DNA of 34,964 bases from NCBI GenBank assembly GCA_031370095.1, contig JANMPY010000106.1, positions 1-34,964 of the forward strand, written 5' to 3'. The position numbers and the translations under genes were made by a program. Each line of letters begins with the position of its first letter. Within the stretch, counting starts at the first letter, position 1. This stretch comes from Betaproteobacteria bacterium. GTDB lineage: Bacteria > Pseudomonadota > Gammaproteobacteria > Burkholderiales > Usitatibacteraceae. Under the pieces are notes generated by a model, which worked only from the letters and a program-made list of their open reading frames with translations, made no database searches and was not told where the DNA came from. Below, piece by piece: positions 8,576 to 26,615 of the stretch.

Positions 8576-10111
8576 TCATGGTTTAGACGTGCGAAGCAGC
8601 GCGTTTTCCAAAGCTCCACCCATGTCGCGAGTGAATTCTTGCAGCGACTTTGAAGATATGTCCGAGGATTCATTTGCACTCGTGTAAATTGCAACCCAGG
8701 CTGACGCGCCGGGTCCGCCAGATAAGCGCGTGCGAAGCTGCCGAAACTTCGCGGCAACGTCATTTGCAGTAGATACCCCATTAATCCAATACCAATGCCA
8801 TGCAAGTACTCTACCCGTGCGGCCAAGTATTACGCCAGTTTTTGCTTCGAGAGGCTGGCCTGATATTTCAGTCTGTACGACGCCTCGATCCGCCAGGTTC
8901 CAGCTCGATTTATCCCCGCCAGCAAGTTGGTTGGTCACGGTTACCAGCTTGGACTCCCACGTTTCGTTGCGAAAGATGCCGACAAAAACACTGACGCGAC
9001 GGCTCGCTTTTTCAAAAACCTGGATGCGGAGCAATGAAGGGTTAGTGAGTTCCGGGGCCCATTCCAGTGCCGACGTTTCAACCGGCGACCAGCCAGCCTG
9101 CGGTAGGATATTTGCTACTTCCATTGGGCTTGATATCAGCTGAACCTGCAACCGAGATTCATACAACGGCCAAACTGCCAATGCGACCGCAATCAGAGCG
9201 GAAACGGTTAGGAGCCGATGTACAGACGGCCCGCGCAAGGGGGACGAACTTGTGGCCACTCCATTGAGATCAAGTCGACTGTTGTCGCCTGCCGACGGCT
9301 CCGCGTCGCGATAGCGCAGCCCAAACCAACAAAAAAAGAATAGAAATACGGCGAATAGCAGCCAGCCAAAAGTATAGTGATCCTCGCGAAGAAAACGGTT
9401 ATCGCTATAGTGTGCGACCATCATCGTCAGGTAAACGCGGACCCAGTTACCAACTACGCCAATAACGGCCGCGCCAGCGATGAAAACAACACGTTTCATG
9501 GGCGAAACATAAATCGTCCATGCATACAATACGCCAAGTAACAAGCAAGTACTTAGGAACGCTACCCCGCTACAGGTGTCGGCGACGGACCACGTACCGC
9601 TGGGAAGGACAAAATACGCTCCCTCGCGGTATATCGGAACACCTGATGCTCGTATGCCCAACTCGGCGAACTTCGCAGTCCATTTCACCAAGGTTGGAAC
9701 CAGTGGGCTCCACATCGGAACCGCAAACATCAACACGAAAAATGGAAAGGCCATTGCGGCCAACCAGCGAAATCCAAGCAAGGTCAGCACGGCCATTGGA
9801 ACCATCGCGAGCACGGCAAGCTGCGTGAAGACGCGGGTGAAGACAAGCTGTCCCGACAGCCAAATAAATCCCAATCCAATCAGCCCGATGAATCCAAACA
9901 AGAAGGGATGAATCGGCAACATGGCAAGTTTGGCGCGCAGATTCCAAATGAGCACCAAAACGACGAAGACGACGAGCGCACTGTGAGAAGAATAATCTGT
10001 GTCCCTCCCAAACCCCAGTAAATTAGCGGTAGTCGGCCAGTATATGCACGCGACTGAAATGAAGATTGCGGCTAAGATAAGAGGCCCGGCGACAAGCACG
10101 CGACCAATCAT
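8576..10111 (-). CDS. xrtA: Exosortase A (XrtA) fused to an EpsI-family domain
   Basis: 511 aa. The polytopic N-terminal ~270 aa carries the exosortase signature residues: Cys in ADTCSGV (Cys180), Arg in GNWVRVY and His in DHYTFGWLLF. After a linker and one TM (LLTVSALIAVALAVWPL), a ~190-aa soluble domain follows of EpsI size and position. ATG start at 10109-10111. Confidence 0.88.
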   Translation of the reverse strand: MIGRVLVAGPLILAAIFISVACIYWPTTANLLGFGRDTDYSSHSALVVFVVLVLIWNLRAKLAMLPIHPFLFGFIGLIGLGFIWLSGQLVFTRVFTQLAVLAMVPMAVLTLLGFRWLAAMAFPFFVLMFAVPMWSPLVPTLVKWTAKFAELGIRASGVPIYREGAYFVLPSGTWSVADTCSGVAFLSTCLLLGVLYAWTIYVSPMKRVVFIAGAAVIGVVGNWVRVYLTMMVAHYSDNRFLREDHYTFGWLLFAVFLFFFCWFGLRYRDAEPSAGDNSRLDLNGVATSSSPLRGPSVHRLLTVSALIAVALAVWPLYESRLQVQLISSPMEVANILPQAGWSPVETSALEWAPELTNPSLLRIQVFEKASRRVSVFVGIFRNETWESKLVTVTNQLAGGDKSSWNLADRGVVQTEISGQPLEAKTGVILGRTGRVLAWHWYWINGVSTANDVAAKFRQLRTRLSGGPGASAWVAIYTSANESSDISSKSLQEFTRDMGGALENALLRTSKP

Positions 10112-10666: not shown

Positions 10667-11344
10667 TTAGGCTCGTGCAGATTTACGTCGCACTAATCCA
10701 AGACCAAGAAGACCCAGGCCCAGTAGTCCCAGCATTGTAGGTTCTGGCACGTTAGAAGGCGGATCCACCATCGTTACTACGCCGACAGTCGTGAAGCCGC
10801 CCCATTCGCCGTGTGTGATGGTGGTCACGTTAGCCAAGCTGAAACCATTGGTCGTATCGACAATGCTGCTGCCATTGGCAGAAAATGCTCCACCGGTAAA
10901 TGCACCGAGGCTGTTCAAAGGCGCGCCGTTAAGTAGCGACCCGACAGTAACCGTGCCACTGGAGATCCCGCCTGTCCAAGTACGCGCTGCAAGGTTGGAG
11001 CCAAGAGGGTTGATGAGGTTCGGATCAGACAAAATGATTGTTAGAGTCCCGGCTCCGCGCGAGCTGAAATCACTGGAGAGCAAACTGAGGAACGCAGGTT
11101 GGCCGTCGGGTGCAGGAGAGTTTGATATCCCGGTGGTCACATTGGCAAACCACAAACCCAAGCCCCCGGAAAAGTGAACAATGCCAACAGTAGAATCAGT
11201 GTCCCCAATTCCGTTGTCTTCAATGCTTACGGAGTTTTCGCCGGAACTCATAGTCAGAATCATAGTTGCATTGGCGAAAGTGGCACCTACTGCTAACCAT
11301 CCGGCCGCGAGAATTGTCGTAGCTATTTTTTTGATATTTTTCAT
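10667..11344 (-). CDS. PEP-CTERM sorting-domain protein (exosortase substrate), function unknown
   Basis: 225 aa. N-terminal signal peptide (MKNIKKIATTILAAGWLAVGATFANA), a Gly/Ser/Thr/Asn-rich Cys-free body, and the C-terminal VPEPTMLGLLGLGLLGLGLVRRKSARA (PEP motif + TM + basic tail). Confidence 0.93.
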   Translation of the reverse strand: MKNIKKIATTILAAGWLAVGATFANATMILTMSSGENSVSIEDNGIGDTDSTVGIVHFSGGLGLWFANVTTGISNSPAPDGQPAFLSLLSSDFSSRGAGTLTIILSDPNLINPLGSNLAARTWTGGISSGTVTVGSLLNGAPLNSLGAFTGGAFSANGSSIVDTTNGFSLANVTTITHGEWGGFTTVGVVTMVDPPSNVPEPTMLGLLGLGLLGLGLVRRKSARA

Positions 11345-11397
11345 GGTGACTTTAGAAAAGGCTGTTATTGAACAATACTACTTACGTAGTATGATAA

Positions 11398-11413
11398 AGC
11401 AAACACTATGCCA
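11398..11413 (-). promoter_or_regulatory. Sigma-54 (-24/-12) promoter for the PEP-CTERM gene at 10667-11344
   Basis: Minus-strand sequence TGGCATagtgtTTGCT matches TGGCAC-N5-TTGC(A/T) with correct spacing. It lies about 55 nt upstream of the ATG at 11344, in an AT-rich leader. Confidence 0.75.
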
Positions 11414-11649
11414 TTAAAAAAAACATCAATAAAACATAACGTTGAACGCAGTAATAATGTAACACTCGTTTTGGAAGAGCAATGTGTAAAGTTTTTTGAT
11501 CTGGATTTGCCGTCGTTGGTGAGAACAACTTTCAAAAATTAATCATGTAAACCCAGCGACAATGTTCGTTGGTCATATATCATAAGTGTATTCGCTGCCG
11601 TTGATTCCCATGTGTCGCCAAATCAGTAGCTTTCAGGCACAAATGGTTG

Positions 11650-11673
11650 GCCTCACCGATTTATCGGCGAGGC
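11650..11673 (-). terminator. Candidate hairpin downstream of the second PEP-CTERM gene
   Basis: GCCTCaCCGATttATCGGcGAGGC imperfect palindrome about 95 nt after the stop at 11766. No clean U-tract on the minus strand, so this is weak. Confidence 0.3.
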
Positions 11674-11765
11674 GCGGGACGCTTGAAAAAAACTGCAAGT
11701 GGTGGGATTCAGGGTTTGGCGGTTTGCGGTTCTAACCAGCGTGCCTCGACAATCCCAAGCAAGCG

Positions 11766-12458
11766 CTAGGCTGCGCGGCGGCGTGCCCACCCGATTCCGA
11801 TGAGACCAATTCCTAACAATCCCAAAGTTGTAGGTTCCGGTACATTTTGGAATGTAATCTGATCCTGAAAGCCTTGGCTCGTGTAAACGTTAAGCGAATA
11901 CGTGTTGGCGGAATTACTGGGGTTGTTCACTTGATTCAGCCAGCCTTGAGCGATCGTGTGCGGTGCCGAAAGCGCGGCGTTGGAAAAAAAACTGCCCGAT
12001 GCAAGATTGTAGGAAGGCGTGTTGCGCTCGTACAAAATTTCCCAAATGGCTAACTGAAATGCTGCCGCATTGTTTCCGCTGCCCGCACCAGGAGTCGTTG
12101 CTGCCGACAGGAACATCGTCGCCAAACGACCAAGGTCGTTTCGCGACGCAGAATTTAAGGTGAGACCACCTGCATCAAGGGAGTATTCGCCAGGCGTGCT
12201 GCCAGGGATGTACTGAAATATATCCACGCACCACGAAACAAACGAATCCACACTACCTGGCGTTGTATTTGTCATCACAAAACCACCGCCAGACCCGTTG
12301 TAATCCCGGGTAGGCGCGTCCGTCTTTGAAATACTCACCCCTGCACCACCAGCAGGTGCCCAAGCAGTTACCGTAAAGGGAATTGCCGCCGTCGGCAGCG
12401 CGACAAACACACTGCTTACCAAAAAACCGAGAATTGTTGCGCGCGTCATTGAGTTCAT
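11766..12458 (-). CDS. PEP-CTERM sorting-domain protein (exosortase substrate) with a thioester-domain-like Cys/Gln motif pair
   Basis: 230 aa. Signal peptide, then C-terminal VPEPTTLGLLGIGLIGIGWARRRAA. Single Cys in SWCVDIF (Cys77) and AAAFQLAIWEI (Gln135). An alternative start is the ATG at 12449. Confidence 0.93.
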   Translation of the reverse strand: MNSMTRATILGFLVSSVFVALPTAAIPFTVTAWAPAGGAGVSISKTDAPTRDYNGSGGGFVMTNTTPGSVDSFVSWCVDIFQYIPGSTPGEYSLDAGGLTLNSASRNDLGRLATMFLSAATTPGAGSGNNAAAFQLAIWEILYERNTPSYNLASGSFFSNAALSAPHTIAQGWLNQVNNPSNSANTYSLNVYTSQGFQDQITFQNVPEPTTLGLLGIGLIGIGWARRRAA

Positions 12459-12493
12459 TTTTTTATCCGCAAAAGATTTATTGACTAGCTTAG

Positions 12494-12509
12494 AGCAAAT
12501 GTTGAGCCA
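12494..12509 (-). promoter_or_regulatory. Sigma-54 (-24/-12) promoter for the PEP-CTERM gene at 11766-12458
   Basis: Minus-strand sequence TGGCTCaacatTTGCT has GG and GC at canonical spacing. It lies about 37 nt upstream of the ATG at 12458. Confidence 0.65.
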
Positions 12510-13152
12510 CTTACAATAAGAGGCTATTAAACAATGAGTTGCAGACTTGCTGAAGCTGGAATTCGTTCCAATAATGCCCTACTGTAATTTTTTTCGACAC
12601 TCATAATGATTCATGCTTTGAGAGGTTAGTGCCTTGTTCGTGCCGAGAGGACGTAGGGCGGTGGCACATTCCCTGAAATTTGTGCGCTGCGTAAAGTTTG
12701 CCGATGGATGACAAACATGCACAGTTTCGAAGGGGCGGCCCGCAAGAATTACAGCTTTTAGATCAGCAAATTCGTTCCTTCCGCGAATGTTGGAGCGGCT
12801 GTCTTAGCAGCCACGCGCATTGTTGACGTATGGTAGCCCGCGTGGATCGTTCAAAAATCGAATTGCCATTTGGTGACAAAACATTGCGGGCGCGTCCATA
12901 AGCCAAAAAAATTTATTGCGCAAACTTGCGTTCGTCGGCCTGTTTGCGGCAAGCCGTCTGCATACGAAAAAATCCCATGTTGGCATGCGCGAAAGATCAG
13001 GACTGTTATCGCATTTGTGCAGTGACCTGATGCCGTGGAAAGCGCAAACAGCAAGTTAAAATGAAAGCCGGTTGACGCGATGTGTCGTCTTTAAAACCAA
13101 AATTCCTTGGTTTTTTACGAAAGCGCCATTCATTTATGAGAGTTTGTCCAAA

Positions 13153-15138
13153 ATGTGCGGCATCGCAGGGATTCTTTCCAACTCTTCCAATAAACCGCCA
13201 GAGCGAGCCGAACTTACCGCGATGATCGCCCGCCTGCATCATCGTGGTCCGGACGGAACCGGCATATTGGTTGATGGTGCGATCGGGCTCGCACATGCGC
13301 GCTTGAGCATCATTGATCTTGTCGGCGGCGATCAGCCGATTCACAACGAGGATCGCACCGTCCAAATAGTGTTCAACGGCGAGATTTTTAACTACGTTGA
13401 ATTGCGCCACGAATTGATCGAGCAAGGCCATAAGTTCTACACGCAGTCAGACACGGAAGTTATCGTTCACCTTTACGAAGAACACGGCGAGCGATTCGTT
13501 GATCACCTGAATGGGCAATTCGCGATTGCGCTCTGGGATGCACGCAAGCAGACCTTGTTGCTGGCCCGTGATCGCACGGGAATCAGGCCGCTGTTTTATA
13601 CCGAGGCGGCGGGCCGATTTATTTTTGCGTCAGAAATAAAAGCGCTGTTCGCGTTGCCCGATGTGCGGCGCTGCATTGATGCCCAGGCACTGGCTGAAAC
13701 CTGCACGTATTGGTCGCCACTGGCGCCACGCACTGCATTCGAGGGCGTGTTGTCGCTGCCGCCCGGTCACGTGATGGTGGTCGCAAATGGTGTGCGGCGC
13801 ATTCAACGCTATTGGGACTGGACTTTCCCCAACGATCAATCCGGTGAGAATCGCCATCAGAATCGCAGCGAGGCCGACTACGCAGCTCAACTGCGCGAAC
13901 TACTGATCGACGCCGTGCGCCTGCAACTGCGCGCGGATGTACCGGTTGGCGCGTACTTAAGCGGCGGGCTGGATTCATCCATCATCACCTCGATCATTCG
14001 CAATTTTTCTGACACGCCGCTGCGGACATTTTCGCTGACGTTCGAAGACGCCGAATTCGACGAAAGCGCATATCAAAAAGAGTTGGTTGACTATCTCGGC
14101 ACCGAACACACGTCGATACGTTGCACGCGAGCCGACATTGCGGCCGCTTTTCCACGCACCGTATTGCACACTGAATCGACGATTGTTCGCACCGCACCCG
14201 CGCCACTTATGCTGCTTTCTGCCCACGTTCGTGAAGCAGGCTACAAGGTGGTGCTCACGGGCGAGGGAGCCGATGAAGTTTTTGGTGGCTACGATTTATT
14301 CAAAGAAGCAAAGATACGTCGCTTCTGGGCGCGATCACCGGAGTCAACCACGCGGCCACGAATACTCGAGCGTTTGTATCCGTATCTAAAAAATTCTCCA
14401 ACCGCCGGTCGCGCGTTCACGCAGGCATTCTTCCGCGACGGCATGGAGCATGTCGAGCAACCCTACTTCGCACACATTCCACGCTGGACAACGACCCGTC
14501 GCATCCACCAATTTTTTTCCCGCGAGGTGCGTGACGCTATTGGCGATTGGGATCCATACGGTGCAATTTTGGCGACGCTGCCGAGTGGCATAAATCGCTG
14601 GAAACCGATGGCGCGGGATCAGTATGTGGAGGCGCATACGCTGATGACTGGCTATTTACTTTGCTCGCAAGGTGACCGCGTGGCAATGGCAAATTCCATC
14701 GAAGGGCGTTTCCCGTTTCTCGACCATCGCTTGATCGAATTCGCCAACCAGCTTCCGCCACAACTTAAACTGCACGGCCTCACCGAAAAATACCTGCTCA
14801 AGAAATCAATCAAAGGACTACTGCCTGAAACGGTGCGCACGCGTACCAAGCAGCCTTATCGTGCACCCGACAGCCAAAGCTTTTTCAATGCTGGGGTTCC
14901 GGTGGATTACGTCGCTGAGTTATTCAGCGCGTCGAAAATTTCATCCGCAGGATATTTTGACGCGTCTGCCACGAGCAAATTATTTGAGAAGTGTCGCGCC
15001 GGTCGTGCCATTGGCTTCGCCGACAATATGGCATTCGTCTCGATTTTATCGACGATGTTGTTGCACGAACAATTCATCCTCGGGCACGACATGAGCGCAG
15101 TGGGGCTTGCATCTCGGTCGCGCTCGTTCGCAATTTGA
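13153..15138 (+). CDS. Asparagine synthase-family (class II glutamine) amidotransferase, XrtA/PEP-CTERM system type
   Basis: Ntn-amidotransferase N-terminus MCGIAGIL (catalytic Cys2), so the start is reset from 13072 to the ATG at 13153. PP-loop AYLSGGLDSS. 661 aa. Confidence 0.9.
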   Translation: MCGIAGILSNSSNKPPERAELTAMIARLHHRGPDGTGILVDGAIGLAHARLSIIDLVGGDQPIHNEDRTVQIVFNGEIFNYVELRHELIEQGHKFYTQSDTEVIVHLYEEHGERFVDHLNGQFAIALWDARKQTLLLARDRTGIRPLFYTEAAGRFIFASEIKALFALPDVRRCIDAQALAETCTYWSPLAPRTAFEGVLSLPPGHVMVVANGVRRIQRYWDWTFPNDQSGENRHQNRSEADYAAQLRELLIDAVRLQLRADVPVGAYLSGGLDSSIITSIIRNFSDTPLRTFSLTFEDAEFDESAYQKELVDYLGTEHTSIRCTRADIAAAFPRTVLHTESTIVRTAPAPLMLLSAHVREAGYKVVLTGEGADEVFGGYDLFKEAKIRRFWARSPESTTRPRILERLYPYLKNSPTAGRAFTQAFFRDGMEHVEQPYFAHIPRWTTTRRIHQFFSREVRDAIGDWDPYGAILATLPSGINRWKPMARDQYVEAHTLMTGYLLCSQGDRVAMANSIEGRFPFLDHRLIEFANQLPPQLKLHGLTEKYLLKKSIKGLLPETVRTRTKQPYRAPDSQSFFNAGVPVDYVAELFSASKISSAGYFDASATSKLFEKCRAGRAIGFADNMAFVSILSTMLLHEQFILGHDMSAVGLASRSRSFAI

Positions 15139-15160
15139 GCATACGAAGTTAGGAACCTGC

Positions 15161-16705
15161 ATGCTGCTCCACCATTTTTTTGACCGGACCACCGAACGCT
15201 TAGCCGACAAAGTTGCGTTGATTTGCGATGGCAAGCAATACACCTACGCGGAGCTCGACTCACGTATTGCGCAACTGGCGACGATGCTGCGCCAGCGCGG
15301 CGTTAAACATGGTGACCGCGCAGCACTTTTTCTGGACAACAGTCTTGAAATGGTCGTGGGTGTCTTTGCTGCGCTGCGGATTGGTGCGGTGTTCATGCCC
15401 GTGAACTCATTGACCAAGCATGACAAACTCGCCTTCATGCTTAACGACGCGCGCGCCAGTGCGCTGGTTACGCATGAAGCTTTGCGTGGAATATGGCAAC
15501 ACGCGCTCGGCGCCAATGCATCGATTCATACCTGTATTGTCGTTGGCGATGCCGCCGTTGAAATAGCCACCAGCACAAAGGCTGAGCGATGCGTGCCCTA
15601 CCCGCTGCCATCTGCGCCGCTGCAAAACGCGGATCGCGCCACGCAACTGATCGATCAGGATCTCGCCGCCATCATCTACACCTCCGGCTCGACCGGCCAT
15701 CCCAAGGGCGTGATGTTGACGCATCTCAATATGGTTTCGGCGGCGCGTTCGGTGAGTGGCTATCTTGGCCTCACACAAACCGACGTGATTCTGTGTGCGC
15801 TGCCGCTGGCATTTGACTATGGGCTTTATCAGATGCTGATGGCGTTCAAGGTTGGTGCCACGCTGGTACTTGAGCGCTCGTTTACGTTTCCAATCAAAGT
15901 GCTCGAGGTAATGGCGCAGCGGCGCGTGACCGTGTTCCTTGGTGTGTCGACGATATTCTCATTGCTGATGAATTTGAGGGGGCTGGAAAAATTTGATCTG
16001 GCGTCATTGCGCATGATCACTAATACCGCAGCCGCATTATCGGAGGAACAAATCCGCGGCTTGCGGGCGCTTTTTCCGCAGGCAACATTGTTTTCGATGT
16101 ACGGGCTGACCGAGTGTAAGCGCGTCACTTACCTGCCGCCCGAGCAGTTGGACATTCGACCCACCAGCGTCGGTCGCGGCATGCCAAACGAAGAGGTTTG
16201 GTTGGTTGACGATGTGGGTCAGCGGTTGCCCAACGGCAACACCGGTGAGCTCGTCATTCGCGGCTCAAACGTCATGCGCGGCTACTGGGAAAATCCATCA
16301 GAGACCGCGAAGCGACTTAAAGCTGGCCCAAACCCGGGTGAAATGGTGCTTTACTCTGGCGATCTTTTTCGCACCGATGACGAGGGCTGGCTATACTTCG
16401 TGGCGCGTCGCGATGACATCATCAAGAGCCGCGGCGAGAAGGTCAGTCCGCGCGAAGTGGAGAACGCAATTTACAGCCTGGAGGGCGTATTGGAGGCGGT
16501 GGTGATTGGCGTTGCCGATGAATTATTGGGTGAGGCAATCAAGGCGTATGTCGTGCAGAAAGAAGGTTTCGCGCTCACCGAACGCGAGGTAATTCGACAC
16601 TGCCTCGGACGACTGGAAAATTTTATGGCACCGAAATACGTGGAGTTTGTGTTGGAATTGCCGAAGACGGATACAGGTAAAATTAAACGGACGGGGCTCG
16701 GTTAA
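15161..16705 (+). CDS. AMP-forming acyl-CoA/acyl-ACP ligase (adenylate-forming superfamily), exosortase A-associated type
   Basis: AMP-binding signature IIYTSGSTGHPKGV, plus later GELVIRG...GY and GWLYFVARRDDIIKSRGEKV motifs. Start reset to the ATG at 15161, preceded by AGGAA at 15151. Confidence 0.88.
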   Translation: MLLHHFFDRTTERLADKVALICDGKQYTYAELDSRIAQLATMLRQRGVKHGDRAALFLDNSLEMVVGVFAALRIGAVFMPVNSLTKHDKLAFMLNDARASALVTHEALRGIWQHALGANASIHTCIVVGDAAVEIATSTKAERCVPYPLPSAPLQNADRATQLIDQDLAAIIYTSGSTGHPKGVMLTHLNMVSAARSVSGYLGLTQTDVILCALPLAFDYGLYQMLMAFKVGATLVLERSFTFPIKVLEVMAQRRVTVFLGVSTIFSLLMNLRGLEKFDLASLRMITNTAAALSEEQIRGLRALFPQATLFSMYGLTECKRVTYLPPEQLDIRPTSVGRGMPNEEVWLVDDVGQRLPNGNTGELVIRGSNVMRGYWENPSETAKRLKAGPNPGEMVLYSGDLFRTDDEGWLYFVARRDDIIKSRGEKVSPREVENAIYSLEGVLEAVVIGVADELLGEAIKAYVVQKEGFALTEREVIRHCLGRLENFMAPKYVEFVLELPKTDTGKIKRTGLG

Positions 16706-16840
16706 CCGTGGTCAGCAAGCCCGTTTTACAAGATGTAGATACAGCATTAGAGCGGCTTTCAGGGCATAAGTGCCATGAAGTGCCCGCTAATGCTAGTGTT
16801 TACTAATTAACAATCTCCTTTATTTTCGGCCTGGGAAATT

Positions 16841-17101
16841 ATGCAAGACATCAAGAATTTGGTTCGCAAGTTTCTTCTGGATAATTTTGTGATGGGCGGA
16901 AACATTGTCATCAATGACGATACTTCGTTTATGGCCGCCCACATACTCGACTCCACCGGATTCATTGAATTGATCCTTTTCATCGAAGAAACTTTCGACG
17001 TAAAAGTAGATGATGCCGAAATGCTGCCGGAAAATTTTGACAGTCTTATCAATATTGACGGCTATGTTGAACACAAGCGCGTCGCTGTTGCAAGCAGCTA
17101 G
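16841..17101 (+). CDS. Acyl carrier protein
   Basis: 86 aa, acidic, with the phosphopantetheine-attachment motif LDSTGFIELILFIEETF (Ser in DS-T/L context). Confidence 0.8.
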   Translation: MQDIKNLVRKFLLDNFVMGGNIVINDDTSFMAAHILDSTGFIELILFIEETFDVKVDDAEMLPENFDSLINIDGYVEHKRVAVASS

Positions 17102-17129
17102 CCGACACAACGCCAACGCAACCGACGCA

Positions 17130-18119
17130 ATGAGCACGCCAACGCTGCACCCGGATATTCTCGCGTTGGACTGCGAAGCCGAAGCGAATCGCATCGCACA
17201 GCGAATGCTTGAGATTGTCGGCAGCCAATTGCGTCGACGCGGCGTGATCATCGCGATCTCCGGCGGCGTCGATAGCGCGGTCTGCGCCGCGCTTGCTGTT
17301 CGCGCGTTCGGCTCCTCGAAGGTGTATGGATTGATGCTGCCCGAAACAGACTCTTCGTCCAACAGCTTGCGGCGCGGCAAATTGGTTGCTGAACAATTCG
17401 GCATTCCGTTCAGCGTCGAGAATATCGCGCCGACCCTTGAGGCACTCGGCTGCTACCGCTGGCGCGATGATGCGATGCGCGCGGTGTTTCCCGATTTCGG
17501 GCCGGACTGGAAAAGCAAAATTGCGATTGCAGGCGGTCGCGACGGCGCGTTCAATTATTTTAAATTGGTCGTGCAAACACCAACCGGTGAGCTGCATGAA
17601 AAACGCCTGCCCCCGCGCGAATATCTGCAAATAGTTGCCGCCACCAGTTTCAAACAACGGGTGCGAAAGATGCTGGAATATTTCCACGCTGATCGACTCA
17701 ATTACGCCGTCATCGGCACGCCCAACCGCCTGGAATACGATCAGGGATTCTTCGTCAAGAACGGCGACGGTGCGGCCGACCTGAAACCCATTGCGCATTT
17801 ATACAAGACTCAAGTGTATGCCTTGGCAAGGCATCTCGGCATTGCCGACGAGATCTGCAACGCTGCACCGACCACCGACACCTACAGTTTGCAACAAGGT
17901 CAGGACGAATTTTATTTCGCGCTGGCCTACGACAAAATGGATATTGCGCTCTGGTCTTTCAACCACAGCGTGCCCGAGGAAGAGCTGGCATCCTTTCTGG
18001 GCATGCCGCCAAGCCACGCCGCTTTTATTTACAAAGATATCATCGCCAAACGCCACGCCACCCGCTACCTGCACGCCAAGCCGGTGTTGGTCGAGCCGGT
18101 GGCAGAGCTTCCTGTTTGA
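17130..18119 (+). CDS. NAD+ synthetase-like (NadE family) PP-loop ATP pyrophosphatase
   Basis: PP-loop ISGGVDSAV near the N-terminus and NadE-like overall length (329 aa). The start is set at the ATG at 17130 (MSTPTLHPDIL...), because the upstream extension to 17010 overlaps the ACP gene. Confidence 0.75.
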   Translation: MSTPTLHPDILALDCEAEANRIAQRMLEIVGSQLRRRGVIIAISGGVDSAVCAALAVRAFGSSKVYGLMLPETDSSSNSLRRGKLVAEQFGIPFSVENIAPTLEALGCYRWRDDAMRAVFPDFGPDWKSKIAIAGGRDGAFNYFKLVVQTPTGELHEKRLPPREYLQIVAATSFKQRVRKMLEYFHADRLNYAVIGTPNRLEYDQGFFVKNGDGAADLKPIAHLYKTQVYALARHLGIADEICNAAPTTDTYSLQQGQDEFYFALAYDKMDIALWSFNHSVPEEELASFLGMPPSHAAFIYKDIIAKRHATRYLHAKPVLVEPVAELPV

Positions 18120-18153
18120 TTTCATCAGCCGCTTGTCAAGGCTCCGACCAGAA

Positions 18154-20178
18154 ATGACCTCTGTTGCGGGCGAGGAAAATATTCATGAAAATCTGACGCC
18201 AACAGCGTTGACACTTTTTCATCAATGCTTGAACGAGCTCTCGTCGGCGCTCAATGCCCTGCCTGATAAACCGGACGAAACACCGATCAGTACGCTTGCA
18301 GCACTTTGGCATACCGCAGCAGGTCGACCAATCTCGGCCAAGCGCGCGGTTGCAGACGCATTGCCCGAGTTGGATCAAGCTGCGACAACGAAATTGGCTG
18401 CGCTATTAAGGGACCGCATCGCGGGCATCCCGCTGGCCTACCTCACCGGTCGGCAGAATTTCATGGGCGTGGAGCTTTTTGCCAGCGATGCGGCGCTTAT
18501 ACCGCGTGCGGAGACCGAGTTGCTAGGCATTGCTGCGCTCACGCAATTGCGCGCGGTGGTGCGCGAGCAAGCCCATGCCACGGTGATCGACGTCTGTACC
18601 GGGTCTGGCAACCTTGCGCTGGCGCTTGCGTGGCACGAGCCGCACGCGCGCGTCTGGGCAGCCGATCTTTCCGAGGACGCCATCGCGCTGGCGCGTCGAA
18701 ATCTTACCCACCTCGGTCTGGCTGGTCGCGTTGAGTTCCGTGCTGGCGACCTATTGGCACCGTTTGATTTGCCAGAGTTTCATGGCGGAGTCGACTTGCT
18801 TATTTGCAATCCGCCGTACATATCAAGCGGAAAAGTCGATGGAATGCCCGGGGAAATTATTGAGCATGAGCCGCGTCTGGCGTTTGATGGCGGCCCGCTG
18901 GGAATTAGAATTTTATTGCGATTGATTTCTGAAGCGCCACGTTTTTTGCGGCCCGGCGGCTGGCTTGCCTTTGAGATCGGGCTTGGACAGGGCCCGGGCA
19001 TTCGCAAGCGGCTTGAACAGGGCGGTGGTTACGTTGATATTAATGAAGTCTTCGACAGGAACGGTCAGATACGTGCTTTGATTGCGCGCCTGCCTCAGCC
19101 GAAAGGGCAAGTGCCAGTCGAGCGCAATAACGACAGCGGCAACACCTATTCAGTCGCTGTCGCCAACGTAATGGCAGATGGGGAAAAAATTCGTTCGCTT
19201 TGGCGCACGGGTCTAAACGCTGCCACGTTGTGCGAGGCTAAATTCGATTGGTACTATCAGCGCAACCCGGACGGTGCGCCCGATATATTGTTTTTGCTCC
19301 ACAGCGGCAATGCAGGTGCAGTAGGCGTCGCCGCTGTGGGGCACCGCCGTATGCGATTTAACAACGTGATGTTGCTAACCGCCGTAACCGTGGATTTTGT
19401 TGTACATCCGGAACATCGAACCCTGTTTCCCGCATTGGTATTGCAAAAGGAAGTGTGCAGGCGCGCGCTACAAATGCACCATGTGGTCTGGGGATTGCCA
19501 AACCTCAATGCCACTGCGGTTTTTAGCCGCGCTGGCTATCAATTGGTTGGCCAGATGGTGCGTTACGCCCGTGTTTTGCGTTCCGCAGAGTATTTGGCAC
19601 GCCACCTTTCCCCATGGACGAGCCGCGTGGCGGGCGCAATTGTTGATTGGATACTGTTGGGGATTCTCGCCTGGCGCAAACCAAGGGCACGCAGTTATCT
19701 CACCAAATGGCAGCAGCGCCCGGACGCCCGCTTCGACGATCTCTGGCAGCGAAGTGCTGCGCCCGACCAATTGATGGGTGTGCGCGATGAGCAGTATTTG
19801 ACCTGGCGATTCGGCGACTACCTGCTTCGAGCCTATTCGTTTTTCACCCTTGCGTCCGCCGTGGATCAACGTCTTATCGGTTACGCGGTGTGCGAAATTG
19901 ACCAGCAGTCGTTGCACGTCCGCGATTTTCTGATCGATCCCAATATAGCCGGGGCGGCGGCATACCTATGGCACAGCTTGGTTAAGGAAGCGTATCGGAA
20001 GGGCCTTACGAGTCTTTCCGTTGAGTTTCATGGCGGTGAGCTTCTAAAGGAAGAATTAACCGACGCCGGCTTGAGCGCACGCGATCAAAGGCCCCTGTAT
20101 GCTGCACTCGCGGATGAGTCGCTGCCGCTGTTGCAAGCGCGACACTGGTATCTTACCTGTGCGGACGTAGACGGCTAA
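18154..20178 (+). CDS. Fusion protein: HemK/PrmC-family N5-glutamine-type SAM methyltransferase + FemAB-like double GNAT region
   Basis: The N-terminal ~315 aa carry PrmC hallmarks: IPLAYLTGRQNFMGVELFASDAALIPRAETE, SAM motif VIDVCTGSGNLALA, NPPY in LLICNPPYISS, and EHEPRLAFDGGPLG. The C-terminal ~340 aa look like two GNAT-like halves (FLLHSGNAGAVGVAAV...VDFVVHPEHR; LIGYAVCEI...VRDFLIDP). The frame is continuous with no stop. Start taken at the ATG at 18154 (TTG at 18133 is also possible). The 17791-18153 extension is rejected. Confidence 0.75.
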   Translation: MTSVAGEENIHENLTPTALTLFHQCLNELSSALNALPDKPDETPISTLAALWHTAAGRPISAKRAVADALPELDQAATTKLAALLRDRIAGIPLAYLTGRQNFMGVELFASDAALIPRAETELLGIAALTQLRAVVREQAHATVIDVCTGSGNLALALAWHEPHARVWAADLSEDAIALARRNLTHLGLAGRVEFRAGDLLAPFDLPEFHGGVDLLICNPPYISSGKVDGMPGEIIEHEPRLAFDGGPLGIRILLRLISEAPRFLRPGGWLAFEIGLGQGPGIRKRLEQGGGYVDINEVFDRNGQIRALIARLPQPKGQVPVERNNDSGNTYSVAVANVMADGEKIRSLWRTGLNAATLCEAKFDWYYQRNPDGAPDILFLLHSGNAGAVGVAAVGHRRMRFNNVMLLTAVTVDFVVHPEHRTLFPALVLQKEVCRRALQMHHVVWGLPNLNATAVFSRAGYQLVGQMVRYARVLRSAEYLARHLSPWTSRVAGAIVDWILLGILAWRKPRARSYLTKWQQRPDARFDDLWQRSAAPDQLMGVRDEQYLTWRFGDYLLRAYSFFTLASAVDQRLIGYAVCEIDQQSLHVRDFLIDPNIAGAAAYLWHSLVKEAYRKGLTSLSVEFHGGELLKEELTDAGLSARDQRPLYAALADESLPLLQARHWYLTCADVDG

Positions 20179-20276
20179 TGCGGCGTTATCAAATTGTCAC
20201 AACATAAAACCGGCTGAATGGCTCGACGAGTGGCGGGTTCGGCAGAACACCGCCCAAGCGCTCATCTGGAGGCGCT

Positions 20277-21401
20277 TCATTCAGGCTTGTTTTCGTCCGT
20301 ATTGCGCGGCGGCAAACGATCAATCAGTCGCGCCAGAAGATCCAATGATGCAGAGTGACTGCGTTCGAGCCGCACCATGGTGCGTTCGAGCCGCAGCATG
20401 CTTTCCTCCACCCGAAGCCACCGCGCTGCCAAATCCTCACGACCCAGACTGAACGCGATTTGATGTGCGTCCTGAGCATCGTCATAACCGTTGCCGGCAT
20501 TGGACGAGTAATGATCTCCGGCAAGTAGGCTATCCGCATTTGACGTCGCGCCTATATGAGCACCATGATGTGTCGACGACCTCGGCGCAAGCGTTTCACT
20601 ACTCATTTCTCCCGCGACTTCATGCACGTCCTCAAGCGTAAACACGCGTTTTTCCGCCAGAAACCCTGACAGCAGCAAGCGATCACAAACGGAATTGATG
20701 CGTCGCGGCACGCCGCCGCTGGCCGCAAAAATCGCGCGGTACGCATCGGGCTCGAATTGAGGCGAGTCTTTCCATCCAACGCACGTCAGACGATGCTCAA
20801 TGTAGCCGCGGGTTTCATCTTCGTCCATTGGGCCAATATGGCATGCCGCGATGACCCGCTGACGTAACTGCTGCATTTGCGGGCTCTGCAAAATATGACG
20901 AAACTCCGGTTGGCCAATCAGGAAGCTTTGTAACAATGCGTGCGTCTCAAGCTGAAAATTTGACAGCATGCGCAATTCTTCAACCGCGCGCGGCGTGAGG
21001 TTTTGCGCCTCGTCGACCACCAGCAGGCATCGCTTGCCCTGCTTTGCAACTGACACCAGAAAAGCCTCAAGCGAGAGCAGTAAATTCGCTTTGTCGGTCT
21101 GCTTGGTTGGAATGCCGAACGCCGCCGCGACCATGCGAAGCGTATCGTCGGCGTCCAATTGTGTACTCACCAGATTCGCTGCGACGACCCGCTCCGGATC
21201 CAGCTTGGCGAAAATATTTCGTACCAGCGTGGTCTTGCCGGCACCGACTTCACCAGTGATCACGATGAATCCCTCGTTCTGATGCAAGCCATACTCAAGG
21301 TATGACATCGCGCGCCGATGCTGGCGGCTACCAAAATAAAATGATGGATCAGGATTGAGTTGGAATGGCTTCTTGGTCAGCCCATAAAACGATGCATACA
21401 T
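20277..21401 (-). CDS. XrtA/PEP-CTERM system-associated AAA ATPase (ExeA/GspA-like)
   Basis: MYASFYGLTKKPFQLNPDPSFYF..., Walker A GEVGAGKTT and Walker B LLVVDEAQNL. It has a ~100-aa low-complexity/coiled C-terminal extension. Confidence 0.85.
   Translation of the reverse strand: MYASFYGLTKKPFQLNPDPSFYFGSRQHRRAMSYLEYGLHQNEGFIVITGEVGAGKTTLVRNIFAKLDPERVVAANLVSTQLDADDTLRMVAAAFGIPTKQTDKANLLLSLEAFLVSVAKQGKRCLLVVDEAQNLTPRAVEELRMLSNFQLETHALLQSFLIGQPEFRHILQSPQMQQLRQRVIAACHIGPMDEDETRGYIEHRLTCVGWKDSPQFEPDAYRAIFAASGGVPRRINSVCDRLLLSGFLAEKRVFTLEDVHEVAGEMSSETLAPRSSTHHGAHIGATSNADSLLAGDHYSSNAGNGYDDAQDAHQIAFSLGREDLAARWLRVEESMLRLERTMVRLERSHSASLDLLARLIDRLPPRNTDENKPE
20361..20402 (-). repeat. In-frame 21-bp tandem duplication inside the ATPase C-terminal extension
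   Basis: gcgttcgagccgcaccatggt / gcgttcgagccgcagcatgct (18 of 21 identical), encoding SMLRLER-TMVRLER. Confidence 0.8.
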
Positions 21402-21415
21402 TTGCGTGCTGCCTG

Positions 21416-23140
21416 TTAGTATCGAAGTGAAACGGACGCGAGAACGGCATTTTCCCGGTAACTTGTGTTCTGGGAATTGTCGAGATGCACGCGCCGGGCA
21501 CCGAAAGTGACATAGGTATTTTGTCCAACACGGGTTGAAAAAAGCAGATTCAGATTACGCTGCCGGGTATCCAGCCCAGCAACGGACAGCCCTTCGCTTC
21601 GCAATGAAGTCGCGATCAATGATATCGATGACAGCGGAGACAATCTTAGTGCCCAGTTCAAATTGAAGCCCTGCTGCAGAATGTCGTTGCTCAATGAAAA
21701 ACTATCCGTTGCACCAATAGTTGGGCCGAATGCTCGCTGATTCCTTCTGGAAAATATCAGGGTAACGGTGTTTTTTACCCCGACGAGTGCGACAGACGCC
21801 TCATCGCTTCGAATCACATACGGCCGGCCCGTAGCAAATCCCCCACTCAATGCCGAGCCCGCAGGAATACCGGACTCTTCCAGTCGTTTGCGCACTGCCG
21901 CCTCACGCGCAATCGGATCCGGTATCGCGGCGACCAGCAGATCTGACAACAAGCCAGCGGTAGAACCCGAGCCGGTTGCGGTCAGTTGACCGGACGACGC
22001 AGTGACGTCCCGGTTACTGGAGAAGCTCCAGGCGCTAAGCGCGGTGCGATGTTTGAAAATAACGCTATGACTATCGCCGAAAAAACGTTTTTCCTTCACC
22101 GCTGCGAATTGTGTACGAGTGCTCGGCGACCACTCCAAGCCAAAACCGGATGTATTTGCACTGGTTTTTTGTAAGCCCGCAAAATTAGTAGCCTCGCGAC
22201 CAACGATTGCCGACACATGGATCTGCGGGTCAACTTCGTAAGATAGTGAGCCGCGGACGCGTTCATCGAACGCCTTGCCTACAACTTTATTGCGAAAGCT
22301 CAACGCACTCCCGTCAACCGACCAGCCCAGGCCGGATATCGCACGCTCATTTTTGATGAAACCAGTCCATTGCCTGCCTATAGTATCCGGCAGTGCCGGA
22401 TCCTTTGAACGAATGTCGGCCGCAACAAGCCTGAGTTGATATGCCGCGAGGTCGATGAGCTTACCGCTAATACGTGGCGAAATCTGGGTGGTCGCCGTTT
22501 CAACCCTGTTGCCATTGGGACCACTGGTGTCTGTCGCCCCGGCAATGCTGAAGGCAGAACGATTTTGTTGCGTAATGTTTGCGCTCGCGTCAACAAACAG
22601 CCAATTGTCGACCACTTCAACCACGGCATTAGACGCCAACAGGTGCTGGCTATTGTTAAGCCGCGAATCGCCTGAATAGCGAAAGTCACGCAAACGATAG
22701 TCCAGGTAGACTCTTGACCGGACACCCCTCTTTTCAATGCGGATTCCTGGAGTAGATTCCGTTATCCAGCTTTTTTTTGCGATTGCAGACGGTACCAACG
22801 CGGCATTGTCAGTGTAGCTCTCGGCCAGACTGATTTCAGGCGTGATGCGCCAGGCCGTGGCACCCACTACGGGCGCGGTACGGGATGGTTCGTCGGGCAC
22901 TGATTGGGCGACACTTCTCGTCGACATACATGCGGCCCCTAACGCCATCGCCAGTGCCGCTACAACCCAAACCGGCTTTGTCGACGCAGTTCGCAGGTCG
23001 CACGCGTCCCCGCCGATCCGGCAGACAACTCCTGGCGTCAAAGCCCGCCACTTTGCTCCTCCGCCAACGCTGTTGTGTGAACATCGTTTAATCAACACGC
23101 TAACTGTAACCGTAGCCATATCCGTAAGCACCTTGCGCAA
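21416..23140 (-). CDS. PEP-CTERM system-associated outer-membrane beta-barrel protein
   Basis: Alternating beta-strand-like sequence throughout, ending in ...VLASVSLRY (terminal aromatic typical of OMPs). Signal-like KPVWVVAALAMALGAACMSTRSVAQS. The codon at 23140 is TTG and overlaps the upstream gene by 41 nt. An in-frame TTG at 23041 downstream of GGAGGAG is an alternative start. Confidence 0.75.
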   Translation of the reverse strand: MRKVLTDMATVTVSVLIKRCSHNSVGGGAKWRALTPGVVCRIGGDACDLRTASTKPVWVVAALAMALGAACMSTRSVAQSVPDEPSRTAPVVGATAWRITPEISLAESYTDNAALVPSAIAKKSWITESTPGIRIEKRGVRSRVYLDYRLRDFRYSGDSRLNNSQHLLASNAVVEVVDNWLFVDASANITQQNRSAFSIAGATDTSGPNGNRVETATTQISPRISGKLIDLAAYQLRLVAADIRSKDPALPDTIGRQWTGFIKNERAISGLGWSVDGSALSFRNKVVGKAFDERVRGSLSYEVDPQIHVSAIVGREATNFAGLQKTSANTSGFGLEWSPSTRTQFAAVKEKRFFGDSHSVIFKHRTALSAWSFSSNRDVTASSGQLTATGSGSTAGLLSDLLVAAIPDPIAREAAVRKRLEESGIPAGSALSGGFATGRPYVIRSDEASVALVGVKNTVTLIFSRRNQRAFGPTIGATDSFSLSNDILQQGFNLNWALRLSPLSSISLIATSLRSEGLSVAGLDTRQRNLNLLFSTRVGQNTYVTFGARRVHLDNSQNTSYRENAVLASVSLRY

Positions 23141-24029
23141 CGGTGCGCGCTTGATTAAGCAAAATCAACTTGACCGGGCACGCCTTGATCGTCGCCAACG
23201 CTCGTTTTACGTCGCCCTGAAGCGTCGCTTCGGCCTGCACGACAAATACAATCTGGCCCATGTGCGTGGCTAATACACGTGATTCCGTGGTGACCAAAAG
23301 CGGCGGCGAATCGAACACCACGATTCGATTTGGATAGCGCGTAGCCATCTCGTCCAGCAACCGATCCATCGCATCACTAGCCAATAATTCAGTCGCGCGT
23401 GCGTGCTGCGTGCCGCTCGTAAGGATGGACAGCCTTTCAACGTTCGTCCTGATTAACGATTGGTCAAGATCAAATGATTTGTCATGTAGCGCGTCGAGCA
23501 GGCCTTTGCCAGACGGCAATCCAAGTACGCGAGGCAGTGAGGGGCGAGCCACGTCAGCATCCACGAGCAAAACTGTCTGATCCAGCTCCATGGCAATGCT
23601 CATCGCCAAATTGATCGCAGAAAAAGTCTTGCCCTCGCCAGGAACGGCGCTCGTCACCATAATCAAATTACCATTTTTGATCGGCACCATCCCTTTGCCT
23701 GAAGCGTTGGCAATCAATGGGCGTTTTACAATACGGAATTCGTCTGCGATGCGTGATCGGGGTATATCCGGCGTGACGAAACCGAGCTTCGCCAGCATCA
23801 CAAGATCCAGTTCAACGCTGGCCGACACAGAACTCCGTGCCTCTGGAAATTCGGTAGCACTGACTGCCGCCATCGCCGCTTCAACGTGTGAAGTCGATGG
23901 AAAAACGGTAGCACCATTGCTATTTTGGGGGCGACTGCGGATGCTATTTTGGCCGGCGTCGCCTGGAATATCGATTCCCGCGCGACGTAGTTCTTCCAGT
24001 CGCTTCGCCGCTTGCTCAATGACACTCAT
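23100..24029 (-). CDS. XrtA-associated tyrosine autokinase-like P-loop ATPase (BY-kinase catalytic subunit)
   Basis: Walker A VTSAVPGEGKTFS, Walker A' LLVDADVARPS, Walker B IVVFDSPP and the C-terminal Tyr cluster GAYGYGYGYS. Confidence 0.85.
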   Translation of the reverse strand: MSVIEQAAKRLEELRRAGIDIPGDAGQNSIRSRPQNSNGATVFPSTSHVEAAMAAVSATEFPEARSSVSASVELDLVMLAKLGFVTPDIPRSRIADEFRIVKRPLIANASGKGMVPIKNGNLIMVTSAVPGEGKTFSAINLAMSIAMELDQTVLLVDADVARPSLPRVLGLPSGKGLLDALHDKSFDLDQSLIRTNVERLSILTSGTQHARATELLASDAMDRLLDEMATRYPNRIVVFDSPPLLVTTESRVLATHMGQIVFVVQAEATLQGDVKRALATIKACPVKLILLNQARTVAQGAYGYGYGYS

Positions 24030-24038
24030 TGGGGATCC

Positions 24039-25592: not shown

Positions 25593-25664
25593 CTCGCACC
25601 CGTTTGAAAACCGAAGGCGGCGCTGGCCGCAACTTCGATGACGCTATGACCACGTGAATGGATG

Positions 25665-26282: not shown

Positions 26283-26615
26283 GTTTCCTCCCTGTTGATT
26301 TGATCTGAGTGCTAGCGAGGATAAATTACCGAAAATATGGTCAATGGCGAGTCCCGCGAAACTTCCACATGTGCCATATGTTACTATCTTTTCAATATCT
26401 TATTGCTCGTTTGGTAAGTGATTTAGGTGCTCTCTGCCGACAGCCTTGAGACGTCAGCCCGCTGGCAAAGATCATCAATTCTCAAAAATAATGTACAAAA
26501 ATATAGCGCATTGCCGCATCTCGACTCGCGCGTGGTGCTCCGCGCGAGTGGCGATGAGACGAATGTTGGCGGGGTACGTCCGACCAAATCTGCCACAGCA
26601 AATCTTAGCCCATTA

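Follow-up and report, generated by a model that had tools for sequence, protein, structure and literature searches.

What brings an asparagine synthetase-like amidotransferase, an adenylate-forming ligase, an acyl carrier protein (ACP), a NAD synthetase-like enzyme, and a methyltransferase together beside the genes of an exosortase? The question is raised by five co-oriented genes at positions 13,153 to 20,178 of contig JANMPY010000106.1, a stretch of 34,964 nucleotides (hereafter the window) from a betaproteobacterium of the family Usitatibacteraceae (assembly GCA_031370095.1), where they lie between two genes for PEP-CTERM proteins and the export operon of an exosortase A (XrtA)-type exopolysaccharide (EPS). 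The open reading frames (ORFs) and domains of the block, with the evidence for each, are as follows:

13153-15138 (+): AsnB-like glutamine-dependent amidotransferase, 661 aa, with an N-terminal Cys glutaminase domain and a PP-loop synthetase domain (profiles, motifs)
15161-16705 (+): stand-alone adenylate-forming ligase, 514 aa, predicted loader of the adjacent ACP (Pfam, NCBIfam, and PDB matches)
16841-17101 (+): dedicated ACP, 86 aa, with the Ser in LDSTGF (weak PP-binding match, Sinorhizobium meliloti orthologue)
17130-18119 (+): NadE-like PP-loop amidating enzyme, ammonia-type, 329 aa (NF002048, PDB)
18154-19110 (+): HemK/PrmC-like N-methyltransferase domain dependent on S-adenosylmethionine (SAM), the 5′ part of a 674-aa ORF at 18154-20178 (TIGR03534)
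19111-20178 (+): tandem-GNAT acyltransferase domain, fused C-terminally to the methyltransferase (AlphaFold2, Foldseek)

Judged by where its homologues occur, the block appears to be a separate, self-contained, and portable cassette, and the HemK::GNAT fusion a lineage-specific feature of it. The new element is the HemK::tandem-GNAT architecture inside an XrtA locus; what is already known is a core cassette that is functionally unsolved. The arrangement is far beyond chance: the block is syntenic in a 93%-identical genome (locus L010), and it returns as a whole in dozens of loci spread over many phyla. Gaps of 22, 135, 28, and 34 nt separate the five ORFs. The AsnB-like protein carries MCGIAG at residue 1 and SGGLDSS at residue 270, the ligase YTSGSTGHPKG, the ACP LDSTGF, the NadE-like protein SGGVDS at residue 44, and the last protein CTGSG and NPPY, the latter at residue 219. 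An earlier account of this DNA made from its letters alone (the sequence-only reading) had given the same coordinates, gaps, and motifs, and it had named the enzyme classes (AsnB-type, ligase, ACP, NadE-like, HemK-like) with which profile searches agree, the match of the ACP being weak.

Two independent scans bear on the unity of the cassette. One used an alignment of the HemK-like domain and covered one genome per GTDB species; it returned 329 stretches with relatives, and the best 80 loci were searched with the window proteins. All five genes were contiguous in 33 of these 80 loci and at least four in 47, the carriers being Beta-, Gamma-, and Deltaproteobacteria, Chloroflexi, Acidobacteriota, Gemmatimonadota, Verrucomicrobia, Ignavibacteria, Calditrichota, Fibrobacteria, and Planctomycetota. 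The other scan was anchored on the NadE-like protein and covered metagenome contigs; it yielded more than 570 stretches, among which loci of at least 9 kb were assessed. In thirty-one such loci three or more of the genes for AsnB, ligase, ACP, and NadE are present, and among these 31 the HemK-like domain is found in 7 and the domain C-terminal to it in 3, so that the invariant core is AsnB–ACP–ligase–NadE and the methyltransferase and C-terminal domain are accessory. A tblastn search of plasmids with the NadE-like protein matched 117 records, 76 of them from Sinorhizobium, followed by Azospirillum, Ensifer, Mesorhizobium, Shinella, and others. The cassette is, by these three counts, widespread. 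It had been suggested that the NadE-like enzyme and the HemK::GNAT fusion occupy the place of a decarboxylase and hydrolases in a canonical exosortase A set; the distribution points elsewhere, to a separate cassette with its own core in which HemK and GNAT are optional additions.

The core itself has been recorded before. On the pSymB replicon of S. meliloti, adjacent co-oriented genes are annotated as asnB, acyl carrier protein, class I adenylate-forming enzyme, and nadE, and in tblastn comparisons over near-full lengths the window proteins are 50% (AsnB), 40% (ACP, SMb20651), 51% (ligase, SMb20650), and 56% (NadE) identical to their products. By these matches the AsnB–ACP–ligase–NadE core is orthologous to asnB–SMb20651–SMb20650–nadE. 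The operon was reportedly described as asnB–SMb20651–SMb20650–nadE1 by Ramos-Vega et al. in 2009 (Microbiology 155:257), who are said to have seen C12:0 and C18:0 acyl forms of SMb20651 in E. coli. SMb20651 and SMb20650 are cotranscribed; SMb20651 is converted to holo-ACP with AcpS, and SMb20650 promotes the acylation of holo-SMb20651 in E. coli, yet it can neither substitute for FadD nor activate long-chain fatty acids in vivo (PMC7232532). In 2017 the function of the operon was still described as to be investigated (PMC5686131). The S. meliloti operon resembles the window block in that the same four proteins are adjacent and co-oriented, the acylation of the ACP there depending on the adjacent ligase. 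It differs in its order, AsnB–ACP–ligase–NadE as against AsnB–ligase–ACP–NadE in the window, in having neither a HemK-like methyltransferase nor a tandem GNAT, and in lying outside any polysaccharide or exosortase locus.

Beyond the core, the cassette varies. A Xanthomonadales form (L037, L045, L053, L061, and L082, from Pseudoxanthomonas, Luteimonas, and Dokdonella) reads AsnB–ACP–HemK–NadE–tandem GNAT. Eight loci from Aquabacterium, Methylibium, and related Burkholderiales (L023, L027, L028, L031, L048, L054, L056, and L064) have one to three extra genes after the cassette, drawn from a FabH-like β-ketoacyl-ACP synthase III (KASIII) gene, one for another small ACP, and one for a ~360-aa protein without a family match, all three being present in L027, L028, L048, L054, and L064; the similarity of the ~360-aa protein to the tandem-GNAT domain is marginal (E 0.003). 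An amino acid–[acyl-carrier-protein] ligase resembling aminoacyl-tRNA synthetases (NF005479, 460 bits) adjoins the cassette in five loci, at 10887-11837 (-) of L015 and also in L020, L034, L080, and L081, and ligase and HemK are fused in one locus. In L009, a metagenome sibling whose last protein is 91% identical to that of the window, asnB is shortened to 109 aa and nadE to 98 aa within the segment 2852-8158, and an rve transposase fragment lies upstream of the syntenic locus; either the cassette is decaying there or the gene fragments arose in assembly.

If the cassette is a unit of its own, how are its enzymes related to those of the exosortase A loci? The AsnB-like protein passes the generic model TIGR01536 (525 bits) and matches Pfam GATase_7 and Asn_synthase. 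Its second-best model is TIGR03108, the XrtA/PEP-CTERM amidotransferase family, where it scores 464.7 bits, below the 816.9 cut-off, and the XrtA/PEP-CTERM setting that goes with this family is present, with XrtA, PrsK/R/T, and the export operon flanking the block. Its score on NF033535, the lasso-peptide cyclases, is 288 bits, far under the cut-off of 525. The ligase belongs to the ANL family (Pfam AMP-binding and AMP-binding_C), and its best-scoring curated family is TIGR03098, the exosortase A-associated AMP-forming ligases, again below the cut-off (474 against 592.35 bits). We take an adjacent decarboxylase dependent on pyridoxal phosphate (PLP; TIGR03099) to be a feature of the TIGR03098 family. 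Family searches of the window's main ORFs found neither such a decarboxylase nor hydrolases of TIGR03100/03101 grade, as the sequence-only reading had held. Its other contention, that the AsnB-type protein and ligase are the recurring companions of XrtA, fares less well, and by the scores above both proteins are related to the TIGR03108 and TIGR03098 families without belonging to them. The canonical set (TIGR03098, TIGR03099, TIGR03100/03101, and TIGR03108) and the window cassette each combine a ligase with an AsnB-type amidotransferase inside an XrtA locus, and the ligase/ACP logic of both resembles that of VinN/VinL; the window cassette departs from the set in the missing decarboxylase and hydrolases, the two scores below cut-off, the invariant NadE-like partner, and its occurrence outside XrtA loci as well.

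The ligase bears on what might be loaded on the carrier protein. Its best single-domain PDB matches are VinN (3wvn, 225 bits) and then the MatB malonyl-CoA synthetase (216 bits). Linear gramicidin synthase, nominally the top match, was discarded as an artefact; its score is the sum of two A domains of about 140-150 bits each and therefore holds no signal of glycine specificity. Stachelhaus positions, mapped by hand from sequence motifs, give the pocket code DYYLTTMRVK for the window ligase and DYYPTTMRVK in 53 of 60 sequences (the window and orthologues from HemK-anchored loci). Y236, M322, R330, and K517 are invariant over all cassette ligases, and position 235 is D in the main clade, which includes S. 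meliloti, and S, G, A, or T in other clades; an equation of D235 with an amino-acid substrate is weakened by these other clades. VinN loads 3-methylaspartate onto a stand-alone ACP, its D230 binding the amino group and K330/R331 (GrsA numbering), in the same loop, being key for binding of 3-methylaspartate (PMC11253843). Like VinN, the window ligase has D235 (in the main clade), a bulky aromatic residue at 236, and a basic residue in the β13-β14 loop, and the VinN–VinL–VinO system of vicenistatin likewise uses a stand-alone adenylation enzyme to load an acidic amino acid on a stand-alone ACP. From the pocket we infer a small acid substrate on which an anionic group would remain once it has been loaded; in the main clade it is probably an acidic amino acid. 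In vicenistatin biosynthesis a PLP-dependent decarboxylase removes the free carboxylate; in that position the window cassette would have its amidating enzymes.

The ACP scores weakly on PF00550 (PP-binding; 18.1 bits against a cut-off of 20.8), retains the DS motif, and has its best NCBIfam matches among the AmcB and OlsHI-type ACPs. The NadE-like protein far exceeds the cut-off of NF002048 (PRK00876, an NAD(+) synthase subfamily; 485.5 against 313 bits) and has an SGGxDS PP-loop. Its best PDB relative is the NadE structure 2e18, matched over two separate stretches (E 9e-37), and among solved or assayed NadE enzymes we found none belonging to the NF002048 subfamily. Its 120 best homologue clusters share 73-97% identity, and it is the most conserved protein of the cassette, at 73-80% identity between Betaproteobacteria and Desulfurivibrio, in contrast to the HemK-like domain (51-66% to its relatives from the genome scan) and to AsnB and the ligase (about 50% to their S. 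meliloti orthologues). One of the two amidating enzymes may act on the acceptor; a nucleotide-sugar uronic acid, for instance, resembles nicotinic acid adenine dinucleotide in outline.

The methyltransferase domain of the last protein marginally passes TIGR03534 (PrmC; 201.7 against 199.1 bits) and scores 175 bits on TIGR00536. No PrmC_N domain (PF17827) was detected in it at E<=0.01, nor was one present among the precomputed domains of its close homologues; in an alignment of the family (A1), an invariant LPDKPEET motif stands in the N-terminal region where PrmC has PrmC_N. The domain shares with PrmC/HemK, the release-factor N5-methyltransferase, a class I SAM fold and the NPPY motif, and differs from it in having the LPDKPEET region in place of a detectable PrmC_N, in being fused to or beside biosynthetic enzymes, and in not lying near prfA in the window. 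Homologues are fused to NAD_synthase (NadE-like), AMP-binding (ligase), PP-binding (carrier), GNAT, or Hexapep domains. The domain alone is common among the homologues, at about 60% identity; full-length fusions with the C-terminal domain are rare, amounting to about 17 clusters of 45-92% identity. All HemK/PrmC relatives of characterised function that match by sequence are protein glutamine methyltransferases, but the context and fusions of the HemK-like domain argue against methylation of the release-factor GGQ glutamine. A more distant HemK-like domain (47% identity) follows AMP-binding_C and PP-binding domains at 10001-11731 of L006, inside a nonribosomal peptide synthetase (NRPS) cluster, an arrangement that suggests that this clade of methyltransferases can act on carrier-bound substrates.

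Beyond the methyltransferase the protein extends for 355 residues. NCBIfam gave no match to this C-terminal domain at E<=0.01, and Pfam only a weak Acetyltransf_1 match (E 0.0036). An AlphaFold2 model of residues 320-674, built on a 37-sequence alignment, reached a pLDDT of 90.8, and Foldseek matched it with probability 1.00 and TM values of 0.5-0.64 to 2hv2, 2i00, 3n7z, 2wpx, and N-myristoyltransferases. On this model the domain consists of two GNAT folds in one chain, of the class that includes Eis-like proteins, clavulanate CBG, and N-myristoyltransferase, and the "GNAT-like halves" discerned from the letters alone are upheld by the same model and by tandem-GNAT matches at a TM of about 0.6. 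A kinship to FemAB, which had been proposed for checking, found no family match, and the domain has no sequence match to TIGR03019 or Acetyltransf_6, the FemAB-related PEP-CTERM-associated families. A profile search of 1.84 billion representatives placed 1475 of them in the family at E<=1e-30; of the 150 listed with the best scores, 3 are HemK fusions. Homologues that stand alone, 350-370 aa long and annotated as hypothetical, adjoin the cassette in many loci. The rare HemK::tandem-GNAT fusion suggests that methylation and transfer concern the same intermediate.

What, then, of the exosortase? The surroundings of the block in the window are a textbook XrtA/PEP-CTERM locus:

8576-10111 (-): exosortase A fused to a C-terminal EpsI domain, 511 aa (TIGR03109, 219.5 bits against 208; TIGR02914, 81.7 bits)
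10667-11344 and 11766-12458 (-): two PEP-CTERM protein genes, divergent from the cassette (TIGR02595 and PEP-CTERM subfamily matches)
20277-26282 (-): XrtA-type EPS export operon, convergent with the cassette, for an ATPase, an outer-membrane protein, a tyrosine kinase, a chain-length determinant, and an exporter (profiles)

The translations of both PEP-CTERM genes end in VPEP-hydrophobic-RR tails, and the models of the export operon (TIGR03015, TIGR03016, TIGR03018, TIGR03007, and TIGR03027) are all above their cut-offs. On the other flank lie GT4, PrsT, PrsR, PrsK, the XrtA+EpsI fusion, and the two PEP-CTERM genes. Profile matches agree in this respect with the context described earlier, adjacent PEP-CTERM genes and a convergent EPS export operon.

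Elsewhere the association is less regular. XrtA-type markers were scored within flanks of 10 kb, which underestimates linkage. At least two XrtA-type EPS markers accompany 3 of the 47 HemK-anchored loci and 4 of the 31 NadE-anchored loci, and at least one accompanies 5 and 9 of them, respectively; overall, 7-14 of 78 informative loci are linked, plus the window and Desulfurivibrio alkaliphilus. The cassette lies in exosortase/XrtA-type loci in the window, L010, L003, L016, L073, L122, L127, L145, L153, and D. alkaliphilus (L092). TIGR03007 and TIGR03027 are above their NCBIfam cut-offs in L127, L138, L145, and L153, with TIGR03015-like ATPases just below theirs. L003, L016, L127, and L145 share the gene order exporter–chain-length determinant–kinase–(outer-membrane protein)–ATPase–AsnB, and in L131, which has a short upstream flank, only the ATPase–AsnB junction is visible. 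In the complete genome of D. alkaliphilus the core cassette, without HemK, stands among GT2, Wzx flippase, and Hexapep genes, with an EpsH+EpsI exosortase fusion like that of the window and a PEP-CTERM gene about 4 kb away. ORFs resembling PEP-CTERM genes are immediate neighbours of asnB in the window, L010, L012, L023, and L028, and are found close by in L027 (Pfam-confirmed, about 1 kb downstream), L031, L100, L103, and L122; these neighbouring proteins are not conserved between loci. Priming glycosyltransferases, GT2/GT4 enzymes, Wzx flippases, and deacetylases flank many cassettes, and outside XrtA loci, where neighbours are mixed, polysaccharide genes are the commonest theme. The marker counts and recurrent gene orders together indicate that the association with exosortases is real and recurrent, in a minority of loci. 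The XrtA association claimed by the sequence-only reading therefore stands insofar as the cassette recurs in XrtA-type EPS loci of unrelated lineages, and fails as a rule, since most loci have no XrtA-type gene within 10 kb. In the literature we found no published link of exosortase with NAD synthase, ACP, methyltransferase, and asparagine synthase, and the Rubrivivax EPS paper has the standard XrtA cluster only, without the cassette.

We tentatively propose that the block is a carrier-protein tailoring cassette, in which amidation and N-methylation of an acyl or aminoacyl unit tethered to the ACP would be followed by its transfer, through the GNAT, to an amine, here most likely that of an EPS sugar, and each step of which we infer. 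The VinN/MatB-like ligase would adenylate a small acid with a second anionic group, probably an acidic amino acid or a dicarboxylate, and load it onto the ACP as a thioester. The AsnB-like enzyme, drawing on glutamine, and the NadE-like enzyme, drawing on ammonia, would then turn the free carboxylate or carboxylates into amides, either on the tethered unit or on the acceptor. In this lineage the HemK-like domain would N-methylate an amide or amine nitrogen, and the tandem GNAT fused to it would release the finished unit by transfer to an amine; the acceptor here would most likely be one of the sugars in the XrtA-type exopolysaccharide. That the methyltransferase is found fused with ligase, carrier, NadE-like protein, and GNATs argues for a single carrier-bound intermediate around which they all work. 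The chemistry that had been read from the sequence, activation of a carboxylate on an ACP, amide formation, N-methylation, and acyl transfer, is reasonable, and it is through these fusions that the HemK-like domain is tied to its partners.

Several observations weigh against this proposal. No recognisable polysaccharide gene lies within 10 kb in 30 of the 47 HemK-anchored loci, by what is a crude test, and the S. meliloti and Nitratireductor operons are isolated, without adjoining polysaccharide genes. The Xanthomonadales loci lack an adjacent ligase, the ligase of L082 lying about 5 kb upstream, and the variants with KASIII and a second ACP look more like lipid or polyketide-type chemistry. 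With D235 substituted in some ligase clades, an amino-acid substrate does not hold across the family. The proposal also leaves the need for two amidating enzymes without explanation, and no member of the cassette has a known product, substrate, or phenotype.

On a rival view the cassette would make a lipid or some diffusible small molecule, perhaps an amidated acyl starter unit or else an N-acyl amino-acid amide, with no relation to the polysaccharide, the position in the XrtA locus being incidental. We regard this as doubtful, if far from negligible. The Aquabacterium and Methylibium variants with KASIII and a second ACP and the HemK-like homologues in an NRPS cluster would suit it, as would the example of OxyD, an AsnB homologue that makes the amide starter unit in oxytetracycline biosynthesis. 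The S. meliloti operon that stands alone, with SMb20651 acylated on co-expression with SMb20650 (PMC7232532), points the same way. It is harder to reconcile with a cassette found repeatedly between polysaccharide genes and co-directional with export or glycosyltransferase genes, with the failure of SMb20650 to activate long-chain fatty acids in vivo, and with the invariant Arg of the ligase pocket, which favours a small polar acid over a fatty acid. A different connection to the exosortase would exist if the cassette built the acceptor or linker for exosortase-cleaved PEP-CTERM proteins, an aminoacyl, amide-bearing sugar decoration comparable to the linking sugar of the T9SS (type IX secretion system). 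In exosortase lineages an ACP-derived, amidated (here N-methylated) aminoacyl group would then be installed by the GNAT on an EPS or lipid-linked sugar and joined to the C-terminus of the PEP-CTERM protein. Both the idea and this particular form of it strike us as unlikely. The occurrence of the cassette inside exosortase/XrtA-type loci of several unrelated lineages, and of PEP-CTERM genes directly beside or near asnB in several loci, speaks for it, and there is a precedent in the T9SS, where 2-N-seryl-3-N-acetylglucuronamide requires the AsnB-like WbpS and the GNAT-like VimA, and whose investigators proposed an equivalent in exosortase loci (PMC7468200). The Wbp/Vim system indeed uses an AsnB-type amidotransferase and a GNAT-type transferase to decorate a sugar that serves sortase-like C-terminal attachment (PMC7468200), but ACP, ligase, NadE-like enzyme, and methyltransferase are all absent from it, WbpS falls in TIGR03108, a family that the window protein does not reach, and the tandem GNAT is by sequence no member of FemAB/TIGR03019. 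XrtA-type neighbours occur in just 7-14 of 78 informative loci, and the core is carried on S. meliloti pSymB and other rhizobial plasmids without exosortase genes nearby. Most XrtA loci, conversely, lack the cassette, which thus is not a general acceptor pathway, and N-methylation, if it fell on the acceptor amine, would make a poorer nucleophile for transpeptidation. The sequence-only reading had offered the exosortase acceptor as one outcome, and the cassette distribution leaves that suggestion alive in weakened form.

Might the target instead be protein? Direct modification akin to that of ribosomally synthesized and post-translationally modified peptides, with amidation or N-methylation of Asp, Glu, or Gln in the neighbouring PEP-CTERM proteins, would be in keeping with those adjacent genes, with the protein glutamine methyltransferases that are the sequence-matching characterised HemK/PrmC enzymes, and with the lasso-peptide cyclases among AsnB homologues (NF033535, 288 bits). 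We think it quite improbable: the invariant ACP and ligase imply carrier-bound small-molecule chemistry, HemK is missing from most cassettes, the NF033535 score is far below 525, and the PEP-CTERM neighbours vary from locus to locus. Hardly credible is the view that these are ordinary housekeeping asnB, nadE, and prmC genes adjacent by chance, even though TIGR01536, NF002048, and, marginally, TIGR03534 are passed and public annotations speak of NAD(+) synthase and release-factor methyltransferase. Cross-phylum synteny, the fusions, a sporadic distribution, carriage on plasmids, the failure to detect PrmC_N, and the borderline TIGR03534 score all stand against it. The characterised housekeeping NAD synthetases of the betaproteobacteria Herbaspirillum and Burkholderia, moreover, depend on glutamine and have an additional glutaminase domain (PMC7196632), and pSymB is dispensable in S. 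meliloti, being removable once engA and a tRNA-Arg gene have been relocated (PMC4207669). It is very unlikely that the NadE-like and HemK-like genes are housekeeping copies: both accompany the cassette from genome to genome and occur as fusions, and the S. meliloti orthologue is on this removable replicon.

Found repeatedly, if in a minority of cases, inside XrtA-type loci beside PEP-CTERM genes, the cassette is a candidate for one lineage-specific EPS decoration and, less probably, for the exosortase acceptor; were the latter true, the cassette would be a carrier-protein-based counterpart of the pathway to the T9SS Wbp/Vim linking sugar. The names "NAD(+) synthase" and "release factor glutamine methyltransferase" are likely misannotations here and probably mislead metabolic reconstructions. 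Tractable systems exist in the SMb20651 operon and in the cultured Aquabacterium commune, Pseudoxanthomonas mexicana, Luteimonas species, and Desulfurivibrio alkaliphilus.

Scans for regulatory elements gave little around the cassette itself. Searches of 12300-20500 for sigma-70 promoters and intrinsic terminators remained at chance level, no Rfam family reached its gathering score in the whole window, and the 694-nt intergenic segment from the second PEP-CTERM gene to asnB (12459-13152) holds no recognised promoter, terminator, or Rfam element. A scan for sigma-54 boxes found none that is convincing upstream of asnB. Boxes of the sigma-54 -24/-12 type, each with one mismatch, lie at 11398-11413 (-) (TGGCATAGTGTTTGCT) and 12494-12509 (-) (TGGCTCAACATTTGCT), 36-54 nt upstream of the starts of the PEP-CTERM genes, the number of such matches in the window as a whole being not above chance; their position fits control of these genes by the PrsK/PrsR sigma-54 system encoded at 4881-8338. 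Beyond the export operon, the galE ORF at 26427-27638 (+) has its listed GTG start 67 codons ahead of the GalE homology, and the true start is probably downstream.

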